64,000 bases of DNA from Clostridia bacterium (GCA_030527165.1 JAUNBH010000002.1:22243-86242); one strand, 5' to 3'. Shown: positions 36,187 to 48,382, counted from the stretch's first letter. The notes: generated by a model not told the origin, from the sequence alone. Translations and numbers: made by a program.

Positions 36187-39100
36187 ATGGGTTTTCTGGA
36201 CACAATACTTGGAACGTCAAGTGCGAGCAGGATCAAGAAGCTGATGCCCAAGCTAAAGGCGATAAACGCCCTGGAGCCCTCCATGCAGGCGCTGTCGGAC
36301 GAGGAGTTGGCGGCAAAGACGGAGGAATTCCGGGGCAGGCTGCGCGCGGGTGCGACGCTCGACGACATATTGCCGGAGGCGTTTGCGGTCGTCAGGGAGG
36401 CGGCGGTACGCACCGTGGGGATGCGTCACTTCGACGTACAGATACTCGGCGGCATAGTGCTTCACAATGGCCAAATATCCGAGATGAAGACGGGCGAAGG
36501 CAAGACGCTCGTGGAAACTCTGCCGGCGTATCTCAACGCGCTCGAGGGCAAGGGCGTGCACATAGTCACGGTAAACGAATACCTGGTGCAGCGCGACGCC
36601 GCGTGGATGGGACGCGTGTTCACATTCCTCGGCCTAACGGTCGGCACGATAGTGCGGGGGCAGACTCGCAACGTCAAGCGGGAGCAGTACCGCTGCGACG
36701 TCATATACAGCACCAGCAGCGAGCTGGGCTTCGACTACCTGCGCGACAATATGGCGGTGTACATAGAGGATACTGTTCAGCGCGAGCCGAACTACGCGAT
36801 AGTGGACGAAGTGGACTCCGTGCTCATAGACGAGGCGCGAACGCCGCTCATCATATCCGGCAGCGGCAAGCCCGTCTCCGCGCCGTGCCGCAAGGCAAAC
36901 GACTTTGTGCGCACGCTTGAGCGCGGGGACGATGTGGACGAGAACGCCTCCAAGATAGAAGCCGTACTGATGCAGCAGGCGCCCAAGGAGAGCGGCGACT
37001 ACATGGTGGACGTAAAGGACAGGCGCGTTTCGCTGACGCAGCGCGGCATGAAGAAGGCGGAGGATTTTTACGGCATAGGCGACCTGTACGGTACGGAGGG
37101 CGTCACCGATCCCGGCGACGAGTTCGACGTGGCGGAGGCGAGCTCCAAGGAGGAGGAGTACTCCGAGATAAAGCACTTCATAATGCAGGCGCTGATAGCG
37201 AAGGCGCTGTACGAGCGCGATGTGGATTATGTCGTCAAAGACGGCGAAGTAATAATCGTGGACGAATCCACGGGCCGCCTCATGATAGGCAGGCGCTACT
37301 CCGACGGTTTGCACCAGGCGATAGAGGCGAAGGAGGGCGTCGCGATACGCAATGAGAACCGCACCGTGGCGTCCATAACCATACAGAACTACTTCCGCAT
37401 GTACAAGAAGCTGGGCGGCATGACCGGAACGGCAAAGACGGAGGAGCCGGAGTTCCAGGCGATATACGACCTGGACGTAATAGAGATACCCACCAATAAG
37501 CCCAACGTCAGGACAGACCACAACGACGTGATAGTCATAAAGGAAGAGATAAAGTTCAACCTCATAGTCGAGGAGATACTGCGCGCCCACCAAAAGGGGC
37601 AGCCTGTGCTCGTCGGCACCGCTTCAGTCGAGAAGAGCGAGCTGCTCAGCAGTATGCTCGCAAAGCGCAAGCTGCCGCACAACGTGCTTAACGCGACGCG
37701 GCACGAGCGCGAGGCGGAGATAATCGCCCAGGCGGGCGCGCCGGGCGCGATAACCATAGCGACCAACATGGCGGGGCGCGGAACGGACATACTCCTGGGG
37801 GGAAACCCCGGGTTCCTGGCTAAGACCAAGCTGCTGAAGAGCAAGGATAAGCGCGGCAAGGATTTTGACGAGGAGACGATAGAGAAGGCGATAGAGCTGC
37901 TGGACGTATCCCGTGACACGGGCAGGCGGCTGGAGGCGCGGGAGCTCTATGCAGAGCTCTACGCGGAGGCAAAGACGGAGACGGAGCGCAAGCGCGCCGA
38001 AGTGCTCAAGGCGGGCGGCCTGTACGTAATAGGTACGGAGCGCCATGAATCCAGGCGCATAGATAATCAGCTGCGTGGCCGCGCGGGACGCCAGGGAGAC
38101 CCGGGTGAGAGCCGGTTCTTCATATCTCTGGAGGACTCCATTATGAAGCGCTTTGGCAAGGTCAGAGAGCTCGTGGAGCGCTTTGGCAGCTATGGGGACG
38201 AGGTGGTGCTCGACATGAAGATGCTGAGCAAGCGCGTCGAGTCCACGCAGAAGAACGTCGAGGCGTACTACTTTGAGGTGCGCAAGAACGTGCTCAAGTA
38301 CGACACCGTGATGAACGAGCAGCGCGAGATAATCTACAAGCAGAGGCGCGAAATACTGGAAGGAAAAGTCATCACCGATGCGATAGAGAACATGGTGCGC
38401 GAGGGCATAAAGTCGCGCATTGAGGCGCATTGTCCGGCGCACGCGCAGCGCGGCGAATGGGATGTGGCGGCGCTCGTGCGGGAGTTGACGCAGCTTACAT
38501 ACGCCAAGCCAATGCAGGCCTTCGTGACGCAAGCCGAGTTTGAGGACATAGAGCGCCAGGCGAGGCAGGCGGCGGACAAGTTCATGTTGGAGCAGCTGCC
38601 CAAGGCGCTGGAAGCGCGCAGCGCGAAGCTCGAGGAGATACGCGCCGTGAAGGACGTCGCAAAGCGGGTTAAGCTCGAGAACACCGTTCCGACGCCCGCG
38701 GAGCTGACAAAGACCGTGCAGAACGACTCCATGAAGTTCTATGCGGGCGTGATAGTAGGCGCTATACAGGCGTTGGCGACTTCAAAGCTGTCAAAACTGT
38801 CGCGCGGCGAGCTCGAGGAGCGCATAGAGCGCACGCTCGTAGCGCAGTACGAGCTGCTGCGCAAATCGTACGCTGAAGCGGGCGGCAACCCCGATGAGCG
38901 CGAGCGCTGCATACTGCTCAACGCCATCGACGAGAACTGGAGCGAGCACATAGACGCCATGCACCAGCTCAGGGACGGCATAGGGCTCAGGGCTATAGGG
39001 CACAAGGACCCGTACAACGAGTACAGGAACGAGTGCTTCGACATGTACAATCAGATGCTCGAGCAGGTGCGTGAGCTGACCATCAAGAGCCTCTACAACA

Positions 39101-39279
39101 CGCGGATATCCGAGCCCAAGCGCCGCGTGACGTTCAGGATAAGCGACGGGGTGCCGGGCGGCGAGGCAAAGCGGCCCGTGACGATGCGGCGAGCGGTCAA
39201 AAAGGTGGGCAAGAACGATCCATGCCCCTGCGGCAGCGGCAAAAAGTACAAGTACTGCTGCGGACGCAAGGACGACTAA
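36187..39279 (+). CDS. secA: Preprotein translocase ATPase SecA
   Basis: [11 protein letters not shown]… start, DEAD-like motor motifs (…MKTGEGKTL…, …[20 protein letters not shown]…, …[10 protein letters not shown]…) and a C-terminal zinc motif [14 protein letters not shown]. The track's 87-codon upstream extension overlaps the DUF4846 gene and is rejected. Confidence 0.95.
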
Positions 39280-39309: not shown

Positions 39310-40411
39310 ATGGTACAGTTGGACGAATACCGTCAGCAGCTCGCGGCCATAATCGAAACGCTGAAAAAGGCAGGTGAATCCCTTTGACCTCGCCGGGTTG
39401 AGGGCTGAACGGGAGTCGCTCGAGGCGAAGATGAGCGAACCGGAGTTTTGGAACGACGTAGACGGCGCGAACAAGGTCAATCAGCGCATAAAGGCCGTAA
39501 ACGGCAAGCTGGAGAAGTACGCTGCGCTGTCTGCGCGCGCATCGGATGTAGAGACGCTCATAGAGATGGCGGAGGAAGAGGAAGACGACTCCATGGCGGG
39601 CGAGATCGCCGCCGAATGCGCTGCGCTCAAAGCGGACGTAGACGCGCTGGAGCTCGAGACGCTGCTCAAGGGCGATTACGATTCGAGCAACGCCGTGCTC
39701 TCGCTGCACGCGGGCGCGGGCGGCACCGAGGCGCAGGACTGGGTGAGCATGCTCTACCGCATGTACACGCGCTACTGCGACGCAAAGGGCTTTTCGGTGA
39801 AGGTGCTGGACATGCTCGACGGCGAGGAAGCGGGCATAAAGAGCGTGGTGTTTGAGGTGGACGGCGACAATGCGTACGGCTATCTCAAGGCCGAGAAGGG
39901 CGTACACAGGTTAGTCAGGATTTCGCCGTTTGACTCCTCCGGCAGGAGGCATACCTCATTTGCTTCACTGGATGTGACGCCCATACTGGATGACGACAGG
40001 GGGGATATTGAAGTGGACCCCGACGACCTGCGCGTTGACACATACCGCTCCAGCGGCGCGGGCGGGCAGCACGTCAACAAGACGTCGTCCGCTATAAGGA
40101 TCACGCACCTGCCCACGGGTATAGTAGTGCAGTGTCAGAACGAGCGCAGCCAGATACAGAACAGGGAAACTGCGATGCGCATGCTTAAGGGAAAGCTGCT
40201 CGAGCTGCAGGAGCGTCAGCGCATGGAGCAGATGGCTCAGATAAAGGGAGAAATGAAGAAAATAGAATGGGGCAGCCAGATCCGGTCGTATGTATTCCAA
40301 CCCTACACGATGGTAAAGGACCATCGCACGGGGGCGGAGAACGGCAATATACAGGCGGTGATGGACGGGGATATTAGTATGTTTATCAATGCGTTTTTGG
40401 TGCAGTCGTAA
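39310..40411 (+). CDS. prfB: Peptide chain release factor 2, expressed through a programmed +1 frameshift
   Basis: Frame 0 runs ATG 39310 … CTT TGA (stop at 39385-39387) and continues in +1 from GAC at 39386. The product has SPF (…RISPFDSSGRR…) and GGQ (…SGAGGQHVN…) motifs. Confidence 0.92.
39382..39388 (+). promoter_or_regulatory. RF2 autoregulatory +1 frameshift site CTT TGA C
   Basis: An exact CUU UGA C heptamer with an SD-like CAGGTGA 4 nt upstream. Confidence 0.9.
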
Positions 40412-41301
40412 TGGTAACTGAGAAGGCGAGGCGGGTTCGCAGGCTGATAGAGCGGCTAAAACCCGTAACCAACTCCCTGAGCGTGCCTCTGGAGCGCCTG
40501 GGGCAGGACGTGTTGGGGAAGGTCAGGCCGGTGCCGGAGGGCATATCGTTCGTGGAGGCCAACGTGGGCGAAATGCCCGCCGAGTGGGTACTGCACGCGA
40601 GAGCGCCGGCAGGGAAGGCGCTGTTCTATGTGCACGGCGGCGCGTATTTCAGCGGCTCTTTGGTGAGCAACAGGCTGCTGTCGGTACAGATAGCGTCCAC
40701 GGTTGAGGTCAATACATTCTCGTTTCAGTACAGGCTTGCACCGGAATACCCGTTCCCCGCGGCGCTGGAAGACTCTGAGACTGCGTATTCGAGGCTGTTG
40801 GAAAGCTATGACAGCAAGGACGTGGTCTTCATAGGAGAGAGTGCGGGCGGAGGGCTATTGGTGGCGCTGGCGCTTAAGCTGCGCGACGAGGGCAGGCCGC
40901 TGCCGGCGGGCATGGTGTGCATGTCGCCGTGGACGGATTTGACGCTGTCCGGGAAGTCATACGAGACGAATATAGATGCAGACATAATGCTCACGCGTGA
41001 TAAGCTGGCCCGTGCGGCGTGGGAGTACGCACCGCTCGACCCGGCTAACCCCTACGTGTCGCCCGCATTTGGTGCGATGCACGACATGCCTCCTACGTTG
41101 ATACAGGTGGGCTCCTGCGAGCTGCTGCTCGACGATGCGCGCATGCTCTCAGACGCCATGGCGGACGCGGACGTGGACGTACGCCTCGAGGAGTGGGGGG
41201 AGATGTGGCACGCGTGGCAGGCGCTCGACATACCGGAGGCGTACAGGGCGATGCGCAGTGTAAAGGACTTTGTTGACGCCAGGCTGGGCAGGGGAGAATG
41301 A
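40411..41301 (+). CDS. Alpha/beta-hydrolase (HSL/esterase-lipase family)
   Basis: Oxyanion motif HGGAYF and nucleophile elbow GESAGG. The ATG overlaps the prfB stop (TAATG). Confidence 0.8.
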   Translation: MVTEKARRVRRLIERLKPVTNSLSVPLERLGQDVLGKVRPVPEGISFVEANVGEMPAEWVLHARAPAGKALFYVHGGAYFSGSLVSNRLLSVQIASTVEVNTFSFQYRLAPEYPFPAALEDSETAYSRLLESYDSKDVVFIGESAGGGLLVALALKLRDEGRPLPAGMVCMSPWTDLTLSGKSYETNIDADIMLTRDKLARAAWEYAPLDPANPYVSPAFGAMHDMPPTLIQVGSCELLLDDARMLSDAMADADVDVRLEEWGEMWHAWQALDIPEAYRAMRSVKDFVDARLGRGE

Positions 41302-42554
41302 GCGACTACAACTGGTTTAGGCTGGATAATGCCGCCAAGATATATCCTGTGATACAGACGGAGCGCTGGTCTCCGATTTTCCGCATGACGGCTATCATGA
41401 AGGAACCGGTGAGCCGAGAACTGCTTCAGCGCGCGCTCGATTCGCTGAGCGAGCGCTTTCCGAGCTTCTATGTGCGGATACGCACGGGCATGTTTTGGTA
41501 TTACCTGGAGAGGCTGAGCGCAGCGCCGCGCGTGGAGGACGACGTAATAAATCCGTGCGGCGCCATGACGAAGGGGGAACCGCTCTTCAGGGTGCGCTGC
41601 CATGAGAACCGGATAAGCCTTGAGATGCACCATGTCGTGACCGACGGCACGGGCGGACTGACGTTTTTCAAGACGCTGTTGGCGCAGTATCTGCGCATGG
41701 CAGGGCACGATATCCCCTGCGACAGGGGCGTGCTCGATCCGACAGACAGGCCCGACGACGAGGAACTGGAGGACGCCTTCATGCGCTTCAGCGAGATGAA
41801 GATACTGCCTCCGCGAATGGAGCAGCGCGCGTACAAGATACGCGGCACGCGGCTTCCAATGGACTTCATGCGAATAACCACGGGCACGATGCGCGCGAGC
41901 GAGGTGCACGCCGCCGCCAAGCGCCACGGCGCCACGGTGACGGAATTTTTGACCGCTCTGCTGCTCCAGTGCGTGTACAAGATACAGTTAGCGGACGGCC
42001 ACCCTCAGCGCCCTGTCAAGGTGAGCGTACCAGTGAATCTCAGGAGGTATTACGGCACGCGCACGCTGAGGAATTTCTCCCAGTATCTCAACCCCGGAAT
42101 AGACCCGCAGTACGGCGAGTTTACATTCGAGGAAATACTGTCGCAGGTACATCATTACATGCGGCTGATGTACACGGAGAAGAATCTGAACGCGCGGATA
42201 AGCAAGAATGTGGCCGACGAGAAGAATGTCGTGCTGCGTTTCGTCCCGCTGTTTGTAAAGAACGCCGCAATATTCTTCGAGTGGTCGCGCATAGGTGAGA
42301 ACCTGTTCTCAACTACTCTGTCGAACATGGGCGTGGTAGACATGCCGGACGAGTTGGCGCAGCATATAGAGCGTATGGACTTCGCGCTGCACACCGCCAG
42401 GCGGAATAAGTGCGAATGCGCGGTGCTGACGTTTGGGGACACAATGTCGCTGAGCTTTTCATCCACCATAAGCGAGAGATATCTGGAGCGGCTGTTCTTC
42501 ACGGCGCTCGTCAAGAATTCCATACATGTGCTCGTGGAATCAAACGAATTATAG
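41298..42554 (+). CDS. Condensation-domain-like acyltransferase (HHxxxDG; alcohol acetyltransferase/PapA5-like)
   Basis: N-terminal …WFRLDNAAKIYP… and catalytic motif HHVVTDGTGG. The start overlaps the hydrolase stop (ATGA). Confidence 0.7.
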   Translation: MSDYNWFRLDNAAKIYPVIQTERWSPIFRMTAIMKEPVSRELLQRALDSLSERFPSFYVRIRTGMFWYYLERLSAAPRVEDDVINPCGAMTKGEPLFRVRCHENRISLEMHHVVTDGTGGLTFFKTLLAQYLRMAGHDIPCDRGVLDPTDRPDDEELEDAFMRFSEMKILPPRMEQRAYKIRGTRLPMDFMRITTGTMRASEVHAAAKRHGATVTEFLTALLLQCVYKIQLADGHPQRPVKVSVPVNLRRYYGTRTLRNFSQYLNPGIDPQYGEFTFEEILSQVHHYMRLMYTEKNLNARISKNVADEKNVVLRFVPLFVKNAAIFFEWSRIGENLFSTTLSNMGVVDMPDELAQHIERMDFALHTARRNKCECAVLTFGDTMSLSFSSTISERYLERLFFTALVKNSIHVLVESNEL

Positions 42555-42565
42555 GGGGGACTGTT

Positions 42566-43273
42566 ATGTCATATTGCGTCAATTGCGGGGTAGAGCTTGA
42601 AAAGAGCCTCGAGATATGCCCCCTGTGCCGGACGGAGGTGGTCAACCCCCGTGAGCCCGTGCGCTCTGACGTCATAAGGCCGTATTCCCGGCATCTGGAC
42701 AAGGTTGCCAGAAAAGTACAGCGCAGGACGGTGGCGGGAGTGTTCACCGTGCTGCTGACACTGGCGGGTGGCATATGCGTCATAACCGACGGCGTGTATG
42801 GCGGCGGGCTCACATGGTCGCTCTATGTGCTCGCGTCCATATTGCTTGCCATGCTGGTGGTCGTGCTGCCCGTCTACCCGTTAAACTGGCATCCGCTGTT
42901 TTTCGTGGTAATAGACTGCCTCGCGCTTACACTGTTCATGTATGTGCTCAATGAGCTCGTGGGCGGTGCGCAGTGGTTCTCGACGCTCGCCCTGCCGCTG
43001 ATATTGCTGATTATGGCGGTCGGAGCCATAAACGTATCCGTGATAGACAGCGGCAAGCTCACCAAGCTGCTCATTGCGGCGTGTATCGTGGGTTCCATGG
43101 GGGTCTGCACACTGGGCGTCGAGATAGTGATAGACCTCTATCTGTCCGCAGACGTGGGTTTGTCGTGGTCGTGGCTCGTGTTCGCCCCCTGCGTGGCGAT
43201 AGCCGCGATACTCATCATCATGGACAGCAACAAGCGCGTAAAGAATCTCATGCGCAGGCGGCTGCACTATTGA
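42566..43273 (+). CDS. Zinc-ribbon N-terminal domain fused to a polytopic membrane protein, function unknown
   Basis: MSYCVNCGVELEKSLEICPLCRTEV (CxxC…CxxC) followed by about six hydrophobic segments. The ATG at 42566 lies behind GGGGGGA. Confidence 0.65.
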   Translation: MSYCVNCGVELEKSLEICPLCRTEVVNPREPVRSDVIRPYSRHLDKVARKVQRRTVAGVFTVLLTLAGGICVITDGVYGGGLTWSLYVLASILLAMLVVVLPVYPLNWHPLFFVVIDCLALTLFMYVLNELVGGAQWFSTLALPLILLIMAVGAINVSVIDSGKLTKLLIAACIVGSMGVCTLGVEIVIDLYLSADVGLSWSWLVFAPCVAIAAILIIMDSNKRVKNLMRRRLHY

Positions 43274-43287
43274 AGAGGGGAAAGCCG

Positions 43288-44202
43288 ATGCGGTTGCTGC
43301 TCAATGTAATCAAGGGATTCGTAACCGGGATGGCGGTAATGATACCCGGCGTAAGCGCTGGCTCTATGGCGATGAGCATGGGCATGTACAGTGCGGTACT
43401 GACGCTTGTATCCGGCAAAGAGCCGGAGCGCAAGCAAACGCTTCCCGCACTCATCCCGTACGGAGCGGGCATACTGCTGGGAATAGTGGCGTTCGCATTC
43501 TTGCTTATGGCGCTGCTTACGCGCTTTCCGCTGCAGACGGCGATGGTATTCGTGGGACTCATACTGGGCGGCGTACCGGCGTTGACGCGCACTGTGAAGG
43601 GCACGAGGTTCCGGCTCTCGCACGCCGCGGCGTTTCTGACGGCATTGGCAGCCATGGTGCTGCTGCTTGTTTTCAGCGGCGGCGCAGACAACGCGAACAC
43701 TCTCGAGCCATCGGTGATCAACTTTGTAATCGCCATGGCGCTGGGTTTTGTCGCTGCGGCGACGATGGTGATACCGGGTATAAGCGGCAGCGCCGTAATG
43801 CTCATAGCGGGCTACTACTACGAAGTTACTAACTCCATAAAAGAGCTGACCGAAGGAGTCGTTACGCTAAACGGCGGCATGGTTTGGGAGAGCGCGTTTG
43901 TGCTCGTTCCCTTTGCGCTGGGCGCCGTAGCGGGCGTGGTGCTGGCGTCAAAGCTCATAAGGCGGCTGCTGGAGCGGGTACCGGTGACGACTTGTTGGGC
44001 GCTCATAGCGCTAATGGCGGCATCGCCCGCAGCCGTGCTGCTGAAGATCGAGGTAGACTATGCCGCCGTCACATGGGTGGGGTACGCGGTTGCGGTGCTG
44101 TGCCTTGCGGCGGGCTTCGCCGTGGCGTACTTCCTGAGCAGGGAAGGCAAAAGCGGCGCCGCCAAACGGCTCACGCCCTCCGTCAAAGGCGGCGAGGCGT
44201 AG
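43288..44202 (+). CDS. DUF368-family membrane protein (polyprenyl-phosphate transporter family)
   Basis: Duplicated signature …VMIPGVSAGS… / …MVIPGISGSAVMLIAGYY…, with about eight TM segments. Confidence 0.75.
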   Translation: MRLLLNVIKGFVTGMAVMIPGVSAGSMAMSMGMYSAVLTLVSGKEPERKQTLPALIPYGAGILLGIVAFAFLLMALLTRFPLQTAMVFVGLILGGVPALTRTVKGTRFRLSHAAAFLTALAAMVLLLVFSGGADNANTLEPSVINFVIAMALGFVAAATMVIPGISGSAVMLIAGYYYEVTNSIKELTEGVVTLNGGMVWESAFVLVPFALGAVAGVVLASKLIRRLLERVPVTTCWALIALMAASPAAVLLKIEVDYAAVTWVGYAVAVLCLAAGFAVAYFLSREGKSGAAKRLTPSVKGGEA

Positions 44203-44246
44203 ATAAGCAGGAGTATATGGTGCGGGCGCGCTGTGATGCGCGCGCT

Positions 44247-45251
44247 TTACACTTCTTCTATATCGCTTACGAGCGATTCCGCAAATTCAAATCGCAGCAG
44301 CTTCGCGCGGTAGAGCCCATCGCCTTCGGGCAGGCATAGTCCCAGCGTGGTGGAGTCCTCCACCCCTATGGGCAAAGCCGCGTACTCAAAGCCGCCGCAC
44401 AGTTCCCGTATAGCGTCGACGGTTTCGTCTGAGCGCATATCCGGAGTTAACAGCGAGAGCGCCTCTACGTACAGCCCCTCTCGCGCGGCTTCGCAGAGCG
44501 CTATGGCGATATTCGCCCGCGAGTTCAGCGGCGCAGCACTGTGTGAAAAGAAGCCCCTCTCGTCGGACACCTTGCAAAATACCCCGTTTATGTAGTCGTA
44601 TACGACGCGCCTTTCGTGCTGCCTGGATGTCTGCAGGCGCGTCAGCGCGAATGGTCGGCCGTCCTCCACGCCCACTGCGTCTCCCTCCAGATCCAGCAGC
44701 GCGGTTTCGTCAGCGTCCATTATCAGCAGCCGTTCGCCCTCGTGGAGCTGTGCATGTACTACCGCCAGCAGCTTGTCGCCCACGTCCAGTGTGCTTATAC
44801 TGCCGCCTATGCCCGCTCCGAGTGCGTACATGGTGGAGCCGTCGCCGCCCTCGCACAGGAGCTTCAGCCCGTGGTCATCGAAGAGCGTCAGGCGCTTGCC
44901 CAAGGGCGAATCCTCCGCTATCGCGAGCTCGCGCGGCCGCGATGCACAGGCGCACTTGAGCGCGTTCAGGCGCAGGCTCACGTCTATCGTCCCATTCGGC
45001 CACACGCAGACCTTGGCGCGCTCCGGCAGCGGGGCGACGGGGCGGGAGTTCTCGACGCACAGCTTGACTGCAGTGGGCAGGCGCGGCGAGTGTCCGGCCT
45101 CCAGCGGGTAAGCGCATATGTAAAACGTCCCGCTGTTGAGTGCGGCATAGGGCAGAAAAGTGTCCGGCGTCGCCTCTCCGACGGGAGCGGCGTTTATCTC
45201 GATGTAGGAGCGCACATCAGTGAGGATGCGCAAGAGCGGCATGGAAAACAA
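44247..45251 (-). CDS. Hypothetical cytoplasmic protein with no recognisable motif
   Basis: A long ORF with ordinary composition, convergent with the DUF368 gene. The start is uncertain. The TTG at 45251, 5 nt after AGGAGGTG, is preferred to ATG 45287 or 45242. Confidence 0.5.
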   Translation of the reverse strand: MFSMPLLRILTDVRSYIEINAAPVGEATPDTFLPYAALNSGTFYICAYPLEAGHSPRLPTAVKLCVENSRPVAPLPERAKVCVWPNGTIDVSLRLNALKCACASRPRELAIAEDSPLGKRLTLFDDHGLKLLCEGGDGSTMYALGAGIGGSISTLDVGDKLLAVVHAQLHEGERLLIMDADETALLDLEGDAVGVEDGRPFALTRLQTSRQHERRVVYDYINGVFCKVSDERGFFSHSAAPLNSRANIAIALCEAAREGLYVEALSLLTPDMRSDETVDAIRELCGGFEYAALPIGVEDSTTLGLCLPEGDGLYRAKLLRFEFAESLVSDIEEV

Positions 45252-45351
45252 ACGGGCACCTCCTATGTTTGCGACAATCGGGCGCATTCGATGCGCCGCG
45301 CCGGCATACTATGAAGCAGGCGGAAACACCGCCGGCATGGGGGGATTGAAT

Positions 45352-46556: not shown

Positions 46557-47432
46557 TCAATACCTGTCAAACGCAAATAGCGGCCGTCTGTGTGCGGCGG
46601 GCGCGTCCGAATCGAGCGAGTCTCGGCGAAGGAGCGCCTCAGCGTTGGGGTTTAGCGGGCATATGACGCTGAACACCTCCTCCCGCGAAGGGAGCGCGCA
46701 CTCGCAGTCGAGCGGCAGCGGAAAAGCCACTCGCGAGTAAGCGCCGGAGAGCCCGCTTAGCAGCCTGCGCACGGAATGGACGTCGCCGCAGAGCTCGTGA
46801 ACGACGGCGCCGTCGCCGTCCTCGTACAGCAGCGCGTATGCGGCGCCCGCCGCTGCGGCGCGCGCACCGGGCAGCGAGAATTCGCGCAGCAGGCTTGCGT
46901 AGGTGGCGGGCGTTCTCACGGCGCCGCCCTGATACTTTGCCATATAGGCGTTGTACGCCCGCTCCATGAGCGCCGCATCCGGCGCGGTGAGGTCGTCCCT
47001 GCCGTCGCGTTCATGAGCCTCCATGATGGCGATTTTCCTGCGGACGAATGGCACATAGCCGTATTTGGCGTAGAAGCGGTGGTCAAACGGTTGGAGCACG
47101 GTGACGTCGAATTCGGCGGTGCGCATCTGTTCAAATGCCGTTGCGAACAGCTCGGACGCGAGGCCGATTCGCCTGAACGCGAGCAGTGTGGCGACGCCGG
47201 ATATGAATCCCATGCGCAGCGTGCAGTCGTGCAGCTGCAGCTCCTGCGGTATTATGTGCATGTTGCTGACTATCATGCCGTCAACGAACGCCGCCAACAC
47301 GAACTCCGGGCGCGTGCGCTCCGCGAAGTAGTACTCGACAAACTCGTCGGAGTCCTCGGGGAAACACGTTCGCCACACCTGGGCAGCCTCGGCGTAGTCA
47401 GAAGCGGCTATGCGCCGTATGACCGCGCTCAT
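46557..47432 (-). CDS. GNAT-family acetyltransferase (Eis-like two-domain form)
   Basis: …ISGVATLLAFRRIGLASELF… acetyl-CoA core, then …LQPFDHRFYAKYGY… The start overlaps the upstream gene stop (ATGA). Confidence 0.65.
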   Translation of the reverse strand: MSAVIRRIAASDYAEAAQVWRTCFPEDSDEFVEYYFAERTRPEFVLAAFVDGMIVSNMHIIPQELQLHDCTLRMGFISGVATLLAFRRIGLASELFATAFEQMRTAEFDVTVLQPFDHRFYAKYGYVPFVRRKIAIMEAHERDGRDDLTAPDAALMERAYNAYMAKYQGGAVRTPATYASLLREFSLPGARAAAAGAAYALLYEDGDGAVVHELCGDVHSVRRLLSGLSGAYSRVAFPLPLDCECALPSREEVFSVICPLNPNAEALLRRDSLDSDAPAAHRRPLFAFDRY

Positions 47433-48325
47433 CGCGTGGGCCTCGCCATGTACTTATCTATCATAAACGCGGGCTGATATGATGATTTCGAGCGCCGCAG
47501 ACCGATTATACCCATGTCCTCCTCGCGGTTTATGTACTGTACGTCGGTGCAGTACTCCCGTGCAAAGCACTGGTTTATCATGGCGTAGCTGCCGGGTATA
47601 GCGTCATCTGCCTTTTCTATGTGCACGACCATCATGCGCTCGCTTATCCTCTGGCCGAGAGAGAACGCCGCCAGCCTTCCGTCTATGCGAATGCCTCCGC
47701 CTACTATCCCGAGCTCGTCCATATGGTCGAACAGCAGGCGTATGGCATCGTACTCGCCCTCCATACCCGGCAGCAGCGCGTCCTTGTTCTGCAGCCACGC
47801 GAGCTGCATTGCGAGCGCATCGTCGCGCATCGCTGCGGTGGCGGGGACGTACTCGTAGTTGGGATAGGCAGACTCGAACTGGTTTATGTGGTTGCGTTTG
47901 GCGTGCAGCCGCTTGCCGGAGAGCGTGATGAGCTTCTGTGCCTCGTATACGTAGTCGCAGTTGTCCAGGTCGAGCGTGAGTTGATAGTCGCCGCAGTATG
48001 TCCGGAACTTGACCTCGATGTCCTCGCTTATTCCCAAAAACAGCGGGTCGATGCCGTTGGCCTCCATGTGACTGCGCGCGGCGTCTACCGCAGCGCGGTA
48101 ATCCGCGCCGGGGTCGAGCGTCAGAGGCGCGTACATGTACGGCGGGTAATCGTCGTACTGCGCGAGTACAAACAGCGCGCCGTCCTGCAGCGCGTAGCGC
48201 AGCTTATTCCCGTGGCCCCAGATGAGCAAGTTCGTGAACGAATAGGTAGAGTTCTCCAGTTTCCAGGCGCGCAGGTAAGGCTCAATGTCCCGCCTCGCGT
48301 CAACGGTTATGGGCAAAAACAGCAT
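47429..48325 (-). CDS. DUF2156-domain protein (MprF C-terminal-domain-like)
   Basis: …YSFTNLLIWGH…LRYA… N-terminus and …INREEDMGIIGLRRSKSSY… C-terminus, as I recall for DUF2156. The ATG at 48325 is 5 nt after GGGAG. Confidence 0.55.
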   Translation of the reverse strand: MLFLPITVDARRDIEPYLRAWKLENSTYSFTNLLIWGHGNKLRYALQDGALFVLAQYDDYPPYMYAPLTLDPGADYRAAVDAARSHMEANGIDPLFLGISEDIEVKFRTYCGDYQLTLDLDNCDYVYEAQKLITLSGKRLHAKRNHINQFESAYPNYEYVPATAAMRDDALAMQLAWLQNKDALLPGMEGEYDAIRLLFDHMDELGIVGGGIRIDGRLAAFSLGQRISERMMVVHIEKADDAIPGSYAMINQCFAREYCTDVQYINREEDMGIIGLRRSKSSYQPAFMIDKYMARPTR

Positions 48326-48382
48326 AAATACTCCCGTAGCTTTTATGCGCATATTCTACCACAGGTGCGCGCGCGAAACAAG

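Follow-up and report, generated by a model that had tools for sequence, protein, structure and literature searches.

In the mycobacterial sulfolipid-1 system, the acyltransferases PapA1 and PapA2, the α/β-hydrolase-fold protein Chp1, the small membrane protein Sap, and MmpL8 couple lipid acylation to the membrane (PMC3318749). In yeast, an acetylation/deacetylation cycle in which Atf2 and Say1 work as an opposing pair on one lipophilic alcohol controls sterol export (PMC4076087, citing Tiwari 2007). These two systems offer the closest functional analogies, as distinct from strictly homologous systems, for a locus that we analyzed in a Clostridia bacterium (GCA_030527165.1), within a stretch of 64,000 nucleotides (nt) hereafter termed the window (JAUNBH010000002.1:22243-86242; positions are counted from its first letter). 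Downstream of secA and prfB lie genes for a serine esterase of the HSL family, a stand-alone condensation-fold acyltransferase (AT), a zinc-ribbon membrane protein of the DUF6320 family, and a DUF368 membrane protein. The first-pass annotation had described these four genes as one envelope-lipid module fused onto a secA-prfB operon. Its four open reading frames (ORFs), with their motifs, coordinates, and junctions, were all recovered, and its gene identities agreed with Pfam (Abhydrolase_3; weak AATase, PapA_C, and Condensation; DUF6320; DUF368). The conserved unit proved to be a different one. Its core is a near-obligate, translationally coupled two-gene cassette encoding the AT and DUF6320, which the esterase often joins but which can do without it.

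The AT shares with PapA5 and the other mycobacterial Pap enzymes a stand-alone condensation fold with an HHxxxDG motif, PapA5 (1q9j) is among its best fold matches, and PapA_C is recognized in 14 of 28 AT homologues. The Pap system differs, however, in that identity is at most 15% and no polyketide synthase, FadD, or MmpL genes lie near the AT. Chp1 is cutinase-like whereas the window esterase is of the HSL family, Sap lacks both a zinc ribbon and any relationship to DUF6320, and the Clostridia hosts have no mycomembrane. Both yeast Pfam families (Atf2, PF07247; Say1, PF10340) are matched by the AT and the esterase, respectively, but the AATase match only just passes, both bacterial enzymes are soluble proteins of the cytoplasm, and the yeast pair has no dedicated zinc-ribbon membrane partner like that of the Clostridia module; a sterol is unlikely to be the general substrate of the latter. 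The condensation domains of nonribosomal peptide synthetases (NRPSs) and the free-standing VibH and SgcC5 have the fold and catalytic motif in common with the AT, but its Condensation score is under the cut-off and no adenylation, thiolation (peptidyl carrier protein), or thioesterase gene was found near the AT in any locus examined. An NRPS context was rejected because adenylation and carrier-protein neighbors are absent. With the family IV/HSL GESAG esterases the window esterase shares the HGG motif, the GESAGG elbow, and the Ser/acid/His triad; it falls under the cut-off of the corresponding NCBIfam model (NF058651) and differs in that esterases of its type are consistently linked to AT-DUF6320. 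The DUF368 protein has PF04018 in common with PopT, but it scores far under the PopT cut-off and lies outside the conserved module. What is new, then, is a dedicated membrane partner, DUF6320, next to an acyltransferase and an esterase of known kinds.

The conserved acyltransferase-DUF6320 pair

Two scans were made, and the 80 best matches of each were taken as loci, by which distant family members are under-sampled. The first, with an AT profile across GTDB-species genomes, matched at least 590 species, with 80 loci retained. The second was a reciprocal metagenome scan seeded by DUF6320, in which 75 of the 80 loci had enough upstream DNA to be informative. In all 80 genome loci, the gene after the AT was a co-directional DUF6320, and the AT gene stood directly 5' of DUF6320 in 72 of the 75 metagenome loci, giving adjacency in 152 of 155 informative loci from at least three orders of Clostridia. 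The median distance from the AT stop to the DUF6320 start was 9 nt over 149 loci. The pair held down to 34% AT identity and was present, with an AT of 40-41% identity, in Lachnospiraceae (Eisenbergiella). Carriers include human-gut Christensenellales, Oscillospirales, and Lachnospiraceae, with Eisenbergiella, Guopingia, and Yeguia as cultured genera. Fusion of the AT to DUF6320 or to any other domain was seen in none of the 120 best AT homologues, and none of the 150 best DUF6320 representatives carried an extra domain.

The esterase gene adjoined the pair in 64 of the 95 loci having at least 1.4 kb of DNA on both sides. It was upstream on the same strand in 46 of these, upstream and divergent in 13, and downstream in 5. 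Since proximity is kept despite three arrangements, a functional link is indicated rather than inherited gene order, in keeping with the annotation's proposal that hydrolase, AT, and zinc-ribbon protein belong together. Correlations of identity among AT, DUF6320, and esterase across loci (r 0.45-0.58) are confounded by phylogeny and were not used as evidence.

Beyond the esterase and DUF6320, no neighbor family occurred in more than 8 of 79 genome-derived loci, and the Pfam-annotated surroundings of the module were assorted housekeeping genes. Extended -10 motifs of the sigma-A type were found upstream of the module in 26 of 116 non-redundant loci, compared to 2.5 expected from mononucleotide shuffles, a crude null. 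Patterns for SigE, SigK, SigG, and SigF were found in none of the same 116 upstream regions, a result of little weight since only 0.0-1.1 were expected in shuffles. Sporulation-specific expression, which we considered, found no support in these upstream regions.

By contrast with the pair, the remaining parts of the proposed four-gene module were confined to few lineages. No genome locus of the 80 had DUF368 beside the pair, one of the 80 metagenome loci did (L118), and all four genes occurred together, beyond the window, only in L169. This locus is the closest relative of the window (AT 70% identical), and its genes from secA to DUF368 are arranged as in the window. The relatives that come next (L002-L007 and L170; AT 53-58% identical) keep the order secA-prfB-esterase-AT-DUF6320 without DUF368, and in them a gap of roughly 60-340 nt, not present in L169, separates prfB from the esterase gene. 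The secA-prfB linkage is itself limited to these nearest relatives (L002-L007, L169, and L170) and gone further out, where housekeeping contexts vary and sigma-A-like -10 elements are enriched upstream. Synteny in related genomes, on which the four-gene claim depended, thus held for AT-DUF6320 and in about two-thirds of loci for the esterase, and failed for DUF368; the fusion to secA-prfB likewise did not stand as a general feature. These gene orders indicate that the four-gene operon on secA-prfB was assembled recently, at the level of a genus, around a cassette that is itself old and autonomous.

Several single loci deserve mention. In L118 (1960-2802), a distant lineage, DUF368 lies directly 3' of AT-DUF6320, and identity to the window proteins is 39% for the AT and 27% for DUF368; one case in 159 independent loci is too few to call significant. 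An 85-residue ORF with a match to FakA-like_M, the middle domain of fatty-acid kinase, is found between DUF6320 and DUF368 in L169 (8590-8847). In Candidatus Avoscillospira (L025, 6884-12126), esterase-AT-DUF6320 stands immediately 5' of secA, not 3' of prfB; proximity to secA thus recurs there with another gene order. In a low-GC lineage, DUF6320 is preceded by a 278-residue protein with a C-terminal GNAT domain, not by a condensation-fold AT (L112, 427-2065; L163, 7085-8723; L164, 4309-5947), and this protein may have taken the place of the acyltransferase partner by non-orthologous replacement. In L163, two genes of the phospholipase D type (cardiolipin-synthase-like) lie about 3 kb downstream.

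Properties of the acyltransferase, DUF6320, and the esterase

The AT was only marginally assigned by Pfam, with 23.7 bits for AATase (cut-off 22) and scores below the cut-off for PapA_C (22.7 bits, cut-off 30) and Condensation (17.2 bits, cut-off 30.6). Among 28 AT homologues at E ≤0.1, AATase was matched by 25, PapA_C by 14, Condensation by 9, and the wax ester synthase/diacylglycerol acyltransferase (WS/DGAT) families PF03007 and PF06974 by none. His112, Asp116, and Gly117 of the HHxxxDG motif were invariant in the 28, and the first His was often Phe. The AlphaFold model (predicted local distance difference test score, pLDDT, 91.6; predicted template modeling score, pTM, 0.92) has a two-lobed chloramphenicol-acetyltransferase-like fold. 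When this model was searched with Foldseek, NRPS condensation domains ranked at the top, and PapA5 (1q9j), AzeD, and the BAHD enzyme HCT were also matched (all at E ~1e-17 to 1e-14), at TM-scores of 0.5-0.67 and identities of at most 16%. Judged from motif and model, the AT is a soluble, cytoplasmic condensation-fold enzyme with a predicted intact catalytic His-Asp dyad. A sequence search of the PDB with the AT profile returned VibH alone (E 0.029), and no characterized close relative was found by the homologue and PDB searches. Literature on COG4908 yielded nothing relevant.

The window DUF6320 protein was assigned to PF19845 with 35.6 bits (cut-off 29.9, E 1e-8). The family comprises 3,456 representative clusters at 50% identity, and the 150 best representatives were inspected. 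Lengths are about 235 residues, and position 1 of the profile coincides with residue 1 in 148 of the 150, the other two appearing N-terminally truncated. In the structural model (pLDDT 87), a four-cysteine ribbon (residues 1-27) is followed by a basic linker and six transmembrane helices. The mean number of Lys plus Arg is 5.8 in the N-terminal linker, 1.5 in loop 2, 1.7 in loop 4, and 5.5 in the C-terminal tail, compared to 0.4, 0.4, and 0.6 in the outside loops 1, 3, and 5; this positive-inside distribution indicates an N-in/C-in topology with both ends in the cytoplasm.

The ribbon is the best-conserved segment of DUF6320 (mean frequency of the top residue, 0.80). Across 33 sequences whose overall identity is 29-69%, the ribbon cysteines C4, C7, C18, and C21 are invariant, as are the first 11 residues, MSYCVNCGVEL. 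Synonymous codons at the ribbon positions vary freely over 158 genes, all six Ser and all four Val codons being used, and the constraint is therefore on the protein and not the RNA. Of the 158, 157 have a small residue (Ser, Ala, or Pro) at position 2, which allows removal of the initiator Met. A few conserved membrane residues (W84, Y87, W137, P144, E186, W201, and S202) lie toward the outer leaflet. Foldseek comparison of the DUF6320 model with the PDB found no solved structural relative (best E 1.5), and our literature search retrieved no paper that mentions the family and no published function. The annotation's description of the trio as uncharacterized was borne out to this extent.

The esterase was recognized by Abhydrolase_3 (PF07859) at 166 bits (cut-off 25, E 1e-48) and by Say1_Mug180 (PF10340) at 37.8 bits (cut-off 21, E 1e-9), and the NCBIfam model of the GESAG-motif HSL subfamily (NF058651) gave 232.5 bits, under its cut-off of 430. 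Similarity to LipY and HSL models was weak. The triad is Ser144/Glu237/His267, with HGG as the oxyanion motif, and Glu237 lies within a G-x-x-E-x-L-x-x-D motif. Across 87 copies (that of the window and 86 from related loci), conservation of the elements HGG, G-x-SAGG, E237, and W-H267 is 90% or higher.

The operon in the window and its neighborhood

The features of the window that bear on the cassette are collected in Table 1.

Table 1. Positions of the genes from secA to DUF368 and of a candidate promoter in the window
Feature	Coordinates	Strand	Remarks
Sigma-70-like promoter candidate	36129..36157	+	TTGTAA-17-TAAAAT with TG; just 5' of secA; consensus match only
secA	36187..39279	+	Upstream context, outside the conserved module; L169 and L170 have SecA Pfam domains in the corresponding place
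prfB (release factor 2)	39310..40411	+	Canonical programmed +1 frameshift; 72-82% identity in L002-L007 (tblastn)
Hydrolase: cytoplasmic HSL-family (family IV, Abhydrolase_3) serine esterase	40411..41301	+	296 residues; HGGAYF, GESAGG; frequent accessory
Stand-alone condensation-fold acyltransferase (AT; AATase/PapA5-like)	41298..42554	+	418 residues; HHVVTDG; core gene 1
DUF6320 zinc-ribbon membrane protein	42566..43273	+	235 residues; C4-x2-C7, C18-x2-C21; core gene 2
DUF368/VCA0040-like membrane protein, candidate polyprenyl-phosphate translocase	43288..44202	+	304 residues; lineage-specific operon addition

The first frame of prfB is MVQLDEYRQQLAAIIETLKKAGESL, with a stop at CTT TGA C (~39382-39388), and the main frame resumes from 39374. 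The prfB stop and the esterase start share 1 nt (TAATG), esterase and AT overlap by ATGA, the spacer of 11 nt between AT and DUF6320 carries a GGGGGG Shine-Dalgarno sequence, and 14 nt separate DUF6320 from DUF368. Junctions this tight leave no room for a terminator or a promoter between the genes. Terminator-like matches in the region were all intragenic and occurred at the chance level (9, compared to 8.2 expected from shuffled sequence), bearing out the annotation's statement that no terminator intervenes. Co-transcription from secA to DUF368 is the simplest reading of these two results for the window genome, and co-transcription of the four genes with secA-prfB, as the annotation had proposed, is likely there. 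Promoter-like sites in the region numbered 3, compared to 5.1 expected by chance; the candidate just 5' of secA is a possible start of the long transcript.

The DUF368 protein matches PF04018 over residues 14-252 (104 bits, cut-off 26, E 1e-29) and reaches 118 bits with the NCBIfam PopT equivalog model (NF052563), whose cut-off is 400. The next gene after it is a convergent ORF of 346 residues (44247-45287, - strand) that had no Pfam or PADLOC match, and L169 has a 335-residue ORF at the corresponding position. Between the two convergent genes is a GC-rich hairpin (44218-44246; GCGGGCGCGC...GCGCGCGC) that could be a bidirectional terminator. We make no such claim for it, as it has a folding energy of -22.9 kcal/mol but a z of -0.78 against shuffles, and it is without a clean U-tract. 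About 2.3 kb downstream, and kept in L169, is an overlapping pair on the - strand (46557-48352) encoding a soluble LPG_synthase_C protein (similar to the MprF C terminus, 307 residues, E 5e-50) and then a GNAT protein (Acetyltransf_9, 291 residues); this may be another lipid or envelope aminoacylation/acylation module. Upstream of secA (34280-36056) are two further genes, one for a GPR germination protease (Peptidase_A25, E 5e-73) and the other for a DUF4846 protein; the latter is likewise 5' of secA in L169. On this evidence the organism is probably an endospore former. Rfam gave no match at gathering thresholds across the whole window, and the PADLOC models of anti-phage defense matched none of the four proteins.

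Possible functions of the cassette

The above considerations lead us to a reading to which we give about an even chance, namely that the AT and DUF6320 form a membrane-docked acyl-transfer system that the esterase reverses. The nearly invariant cytoplasmic N-terminal ribbon of DUF6320 would dock the AT at the inner face of the membrane, and the six-helix domain would bind, present, or pass on a lipophilic acceptor. The His-Asp dyad of the AT would then transfer an acyl group to a hydroxyl or amine of that acceptor, presumably with ester chemistry. Because no carrier-protein gene is linked, the donor would most likely be an acyl-CoA. The esterase would hydrolyze the same ester, its putative opposing role making acylation of a membrane lipid or alcohol a reversible cycle, which would be expressed in vegetative cells. 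In the window genome and its closest relative, the cassette has been joined to the end of secA-prfB and DUF368 added by local operon accretion.

Several points weigh against this reading. One-third of the loci have no adjacent esterase, and the reversible part of the cycle is accordingly not universal; three DUF6320 loci (L112, L122, and L123) have no AT. DUF6320 has no recognizable catalytic or transport motif and no structural relative, and roles as scaffold, transporter, or sensor are not distinguished. The contact between ribbon and AT is something we infer, as are the donor and the acceptor. The restriction of the sample to best matches and the simple shuffles behind the promoter count also belong here.

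A more specific form of the membrane-docked system is rather unlikely as a whole. In it, the invariant ribbon of DUF6320, as a six-helix membrane protein of novel fold, would fill the carrier-protein docking site of the AT and supply it with an alcohol from the membrane, for instance free undecaprenol or some other endogenous lipid. Together with the esterase this would make a reversible lipid-esterification switch, widespread in gut Clostridia, and a new kind of membrane-coupled acyltransferase.

It is unlikely that the module instead serves to detoxify or export lipophilic alcohols of exogenous or host origin (sterols, bile acids, or fatty and short-chain alcohols) through a cycle resembling that of yeast Atf2 and Say1, with DUF6320 exporting or sensing the ester. 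The prevalence of AATase matches in the AT family, the Say1_Mug180 score of the esterase above its cut-off, and the many gut carriers agree with such a role, and Christensenella makes 3-O-acyl bile acids, an activity that a review attributes to unnamed acyltransferases (PMC13602198). The Say1 match, however, is far weaker than the generic Abhydrolase_3 match (E 1e-9 compared to 1e-48). The module also occurs in fermentation-metagenome records and on contigs not labeled as gut, which an endogenous substrate fits better, and in the loci examined it sits among housekeeping genes and has sigma-A-like promoters, neither a regulator nor an efflux pump being linked to it. The candidacy of the AT as a bile-acid 3-O-acyltransferase was rejected, as nothing ties that activity to the AT family and the occurrence of the module is not limited to samples from the gut.

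DUF368 proteins have been reported as undecaprenyl phosphate (UndP) translocases (PMC9876793; bioRxiv 10.1101/2022.02.03.479048). All four genes might then form one module acting on a polyprenyl-linked envelope component, with esterification or de-esterification of undecaprenol or a UndP-linked intermediate and DUF368 recycling the carrier, much as the first-pass annotation had supposed. The close spacing of DUF6320 and DUF368 in the window, the repetition of the four-gene order in L169, and the apparently independent co-location in L118 are in line with it. The absence of DUF368 from beside the pair in every genome locus, in 79 of the 80 metagenome loci, and in the next-closest relatives, together with a PopT score under the equivalog cut-off, makes it quite improbable. 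Because the juxtaposition of DUF368 is lineage-specific, the polyprenyl-phosphate inference rests on a local arrangement, and the polyprenyl link was not retained as part of the conserved unit.

WS/DGAT enzymes have the HHxxxDG fold, and the weak similarity of the esterase to LipY and HSL models would suit neutral-lipid metabolism like that of mycobacterial Tgs and LipY. The AT would make wax esters or triacylglycerol, the HSL lipase would mobilize them, and DUF6320 would be a nucleation site in the membrane. We find this very doubtful, since the WS/DGAT families matched none of the 28 AT homologues at E ≤0.1 and the esterase is missing from one-third of the loci; to our knowledge, storage lipids are not a general trait of these anaerobes.

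More doubtful still is a role for DUF6320 as the substrate, acylated on its free, Met-processed N terminus, or as a sensor that sequesters or regulates the AT through the ribbon in the manner of a zinc-binding anti-sigma factor. The position of the ribbon at residue 1, its high conservation, the small residue 2, and the outward, sensor-like placement of the conserved membrane residues would all suit it, but we found no precedent, and simple docking fits equally well. Moreover, 13 of the 158 genes encode Ala, Pro, or Asn in place of Ser2, and O-acylation of Ser2 therefore cannot be universal. That the genes have no functional relation and only happen to be crowded at the end of a housekeeping operon is scarcely credible, being refuted for AT-DUF6320 by the synteny counts, at odds with the linkage of the esterase despite rearrangement, and standing only for DUF368 and secA-prfB, whose adjacency is lineage-specific.

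The AT-DUF6320 pair, with or without the esterase, is widespread and unstudied in Clostridia, and it, rather than the four genes of the window, is the correct unit to study. Polyprenyl-phosphate function should not be transferred to the cassette in annotation. As far as gene order can indicate, the two genes appear linked as tightly as those for subunits of a complex, with promoters of the housekeeping type. The membrane-docked acyl-transfer system proposed here could reveal a way of coupling a soluble enzyme of the condensation fold to the membrane that needs neither a carrier protein nor a transporter of the MmpL type, and defining the product of the pair would supply a missing step in the membrane and envelope lipid chemistry of Clostridia.

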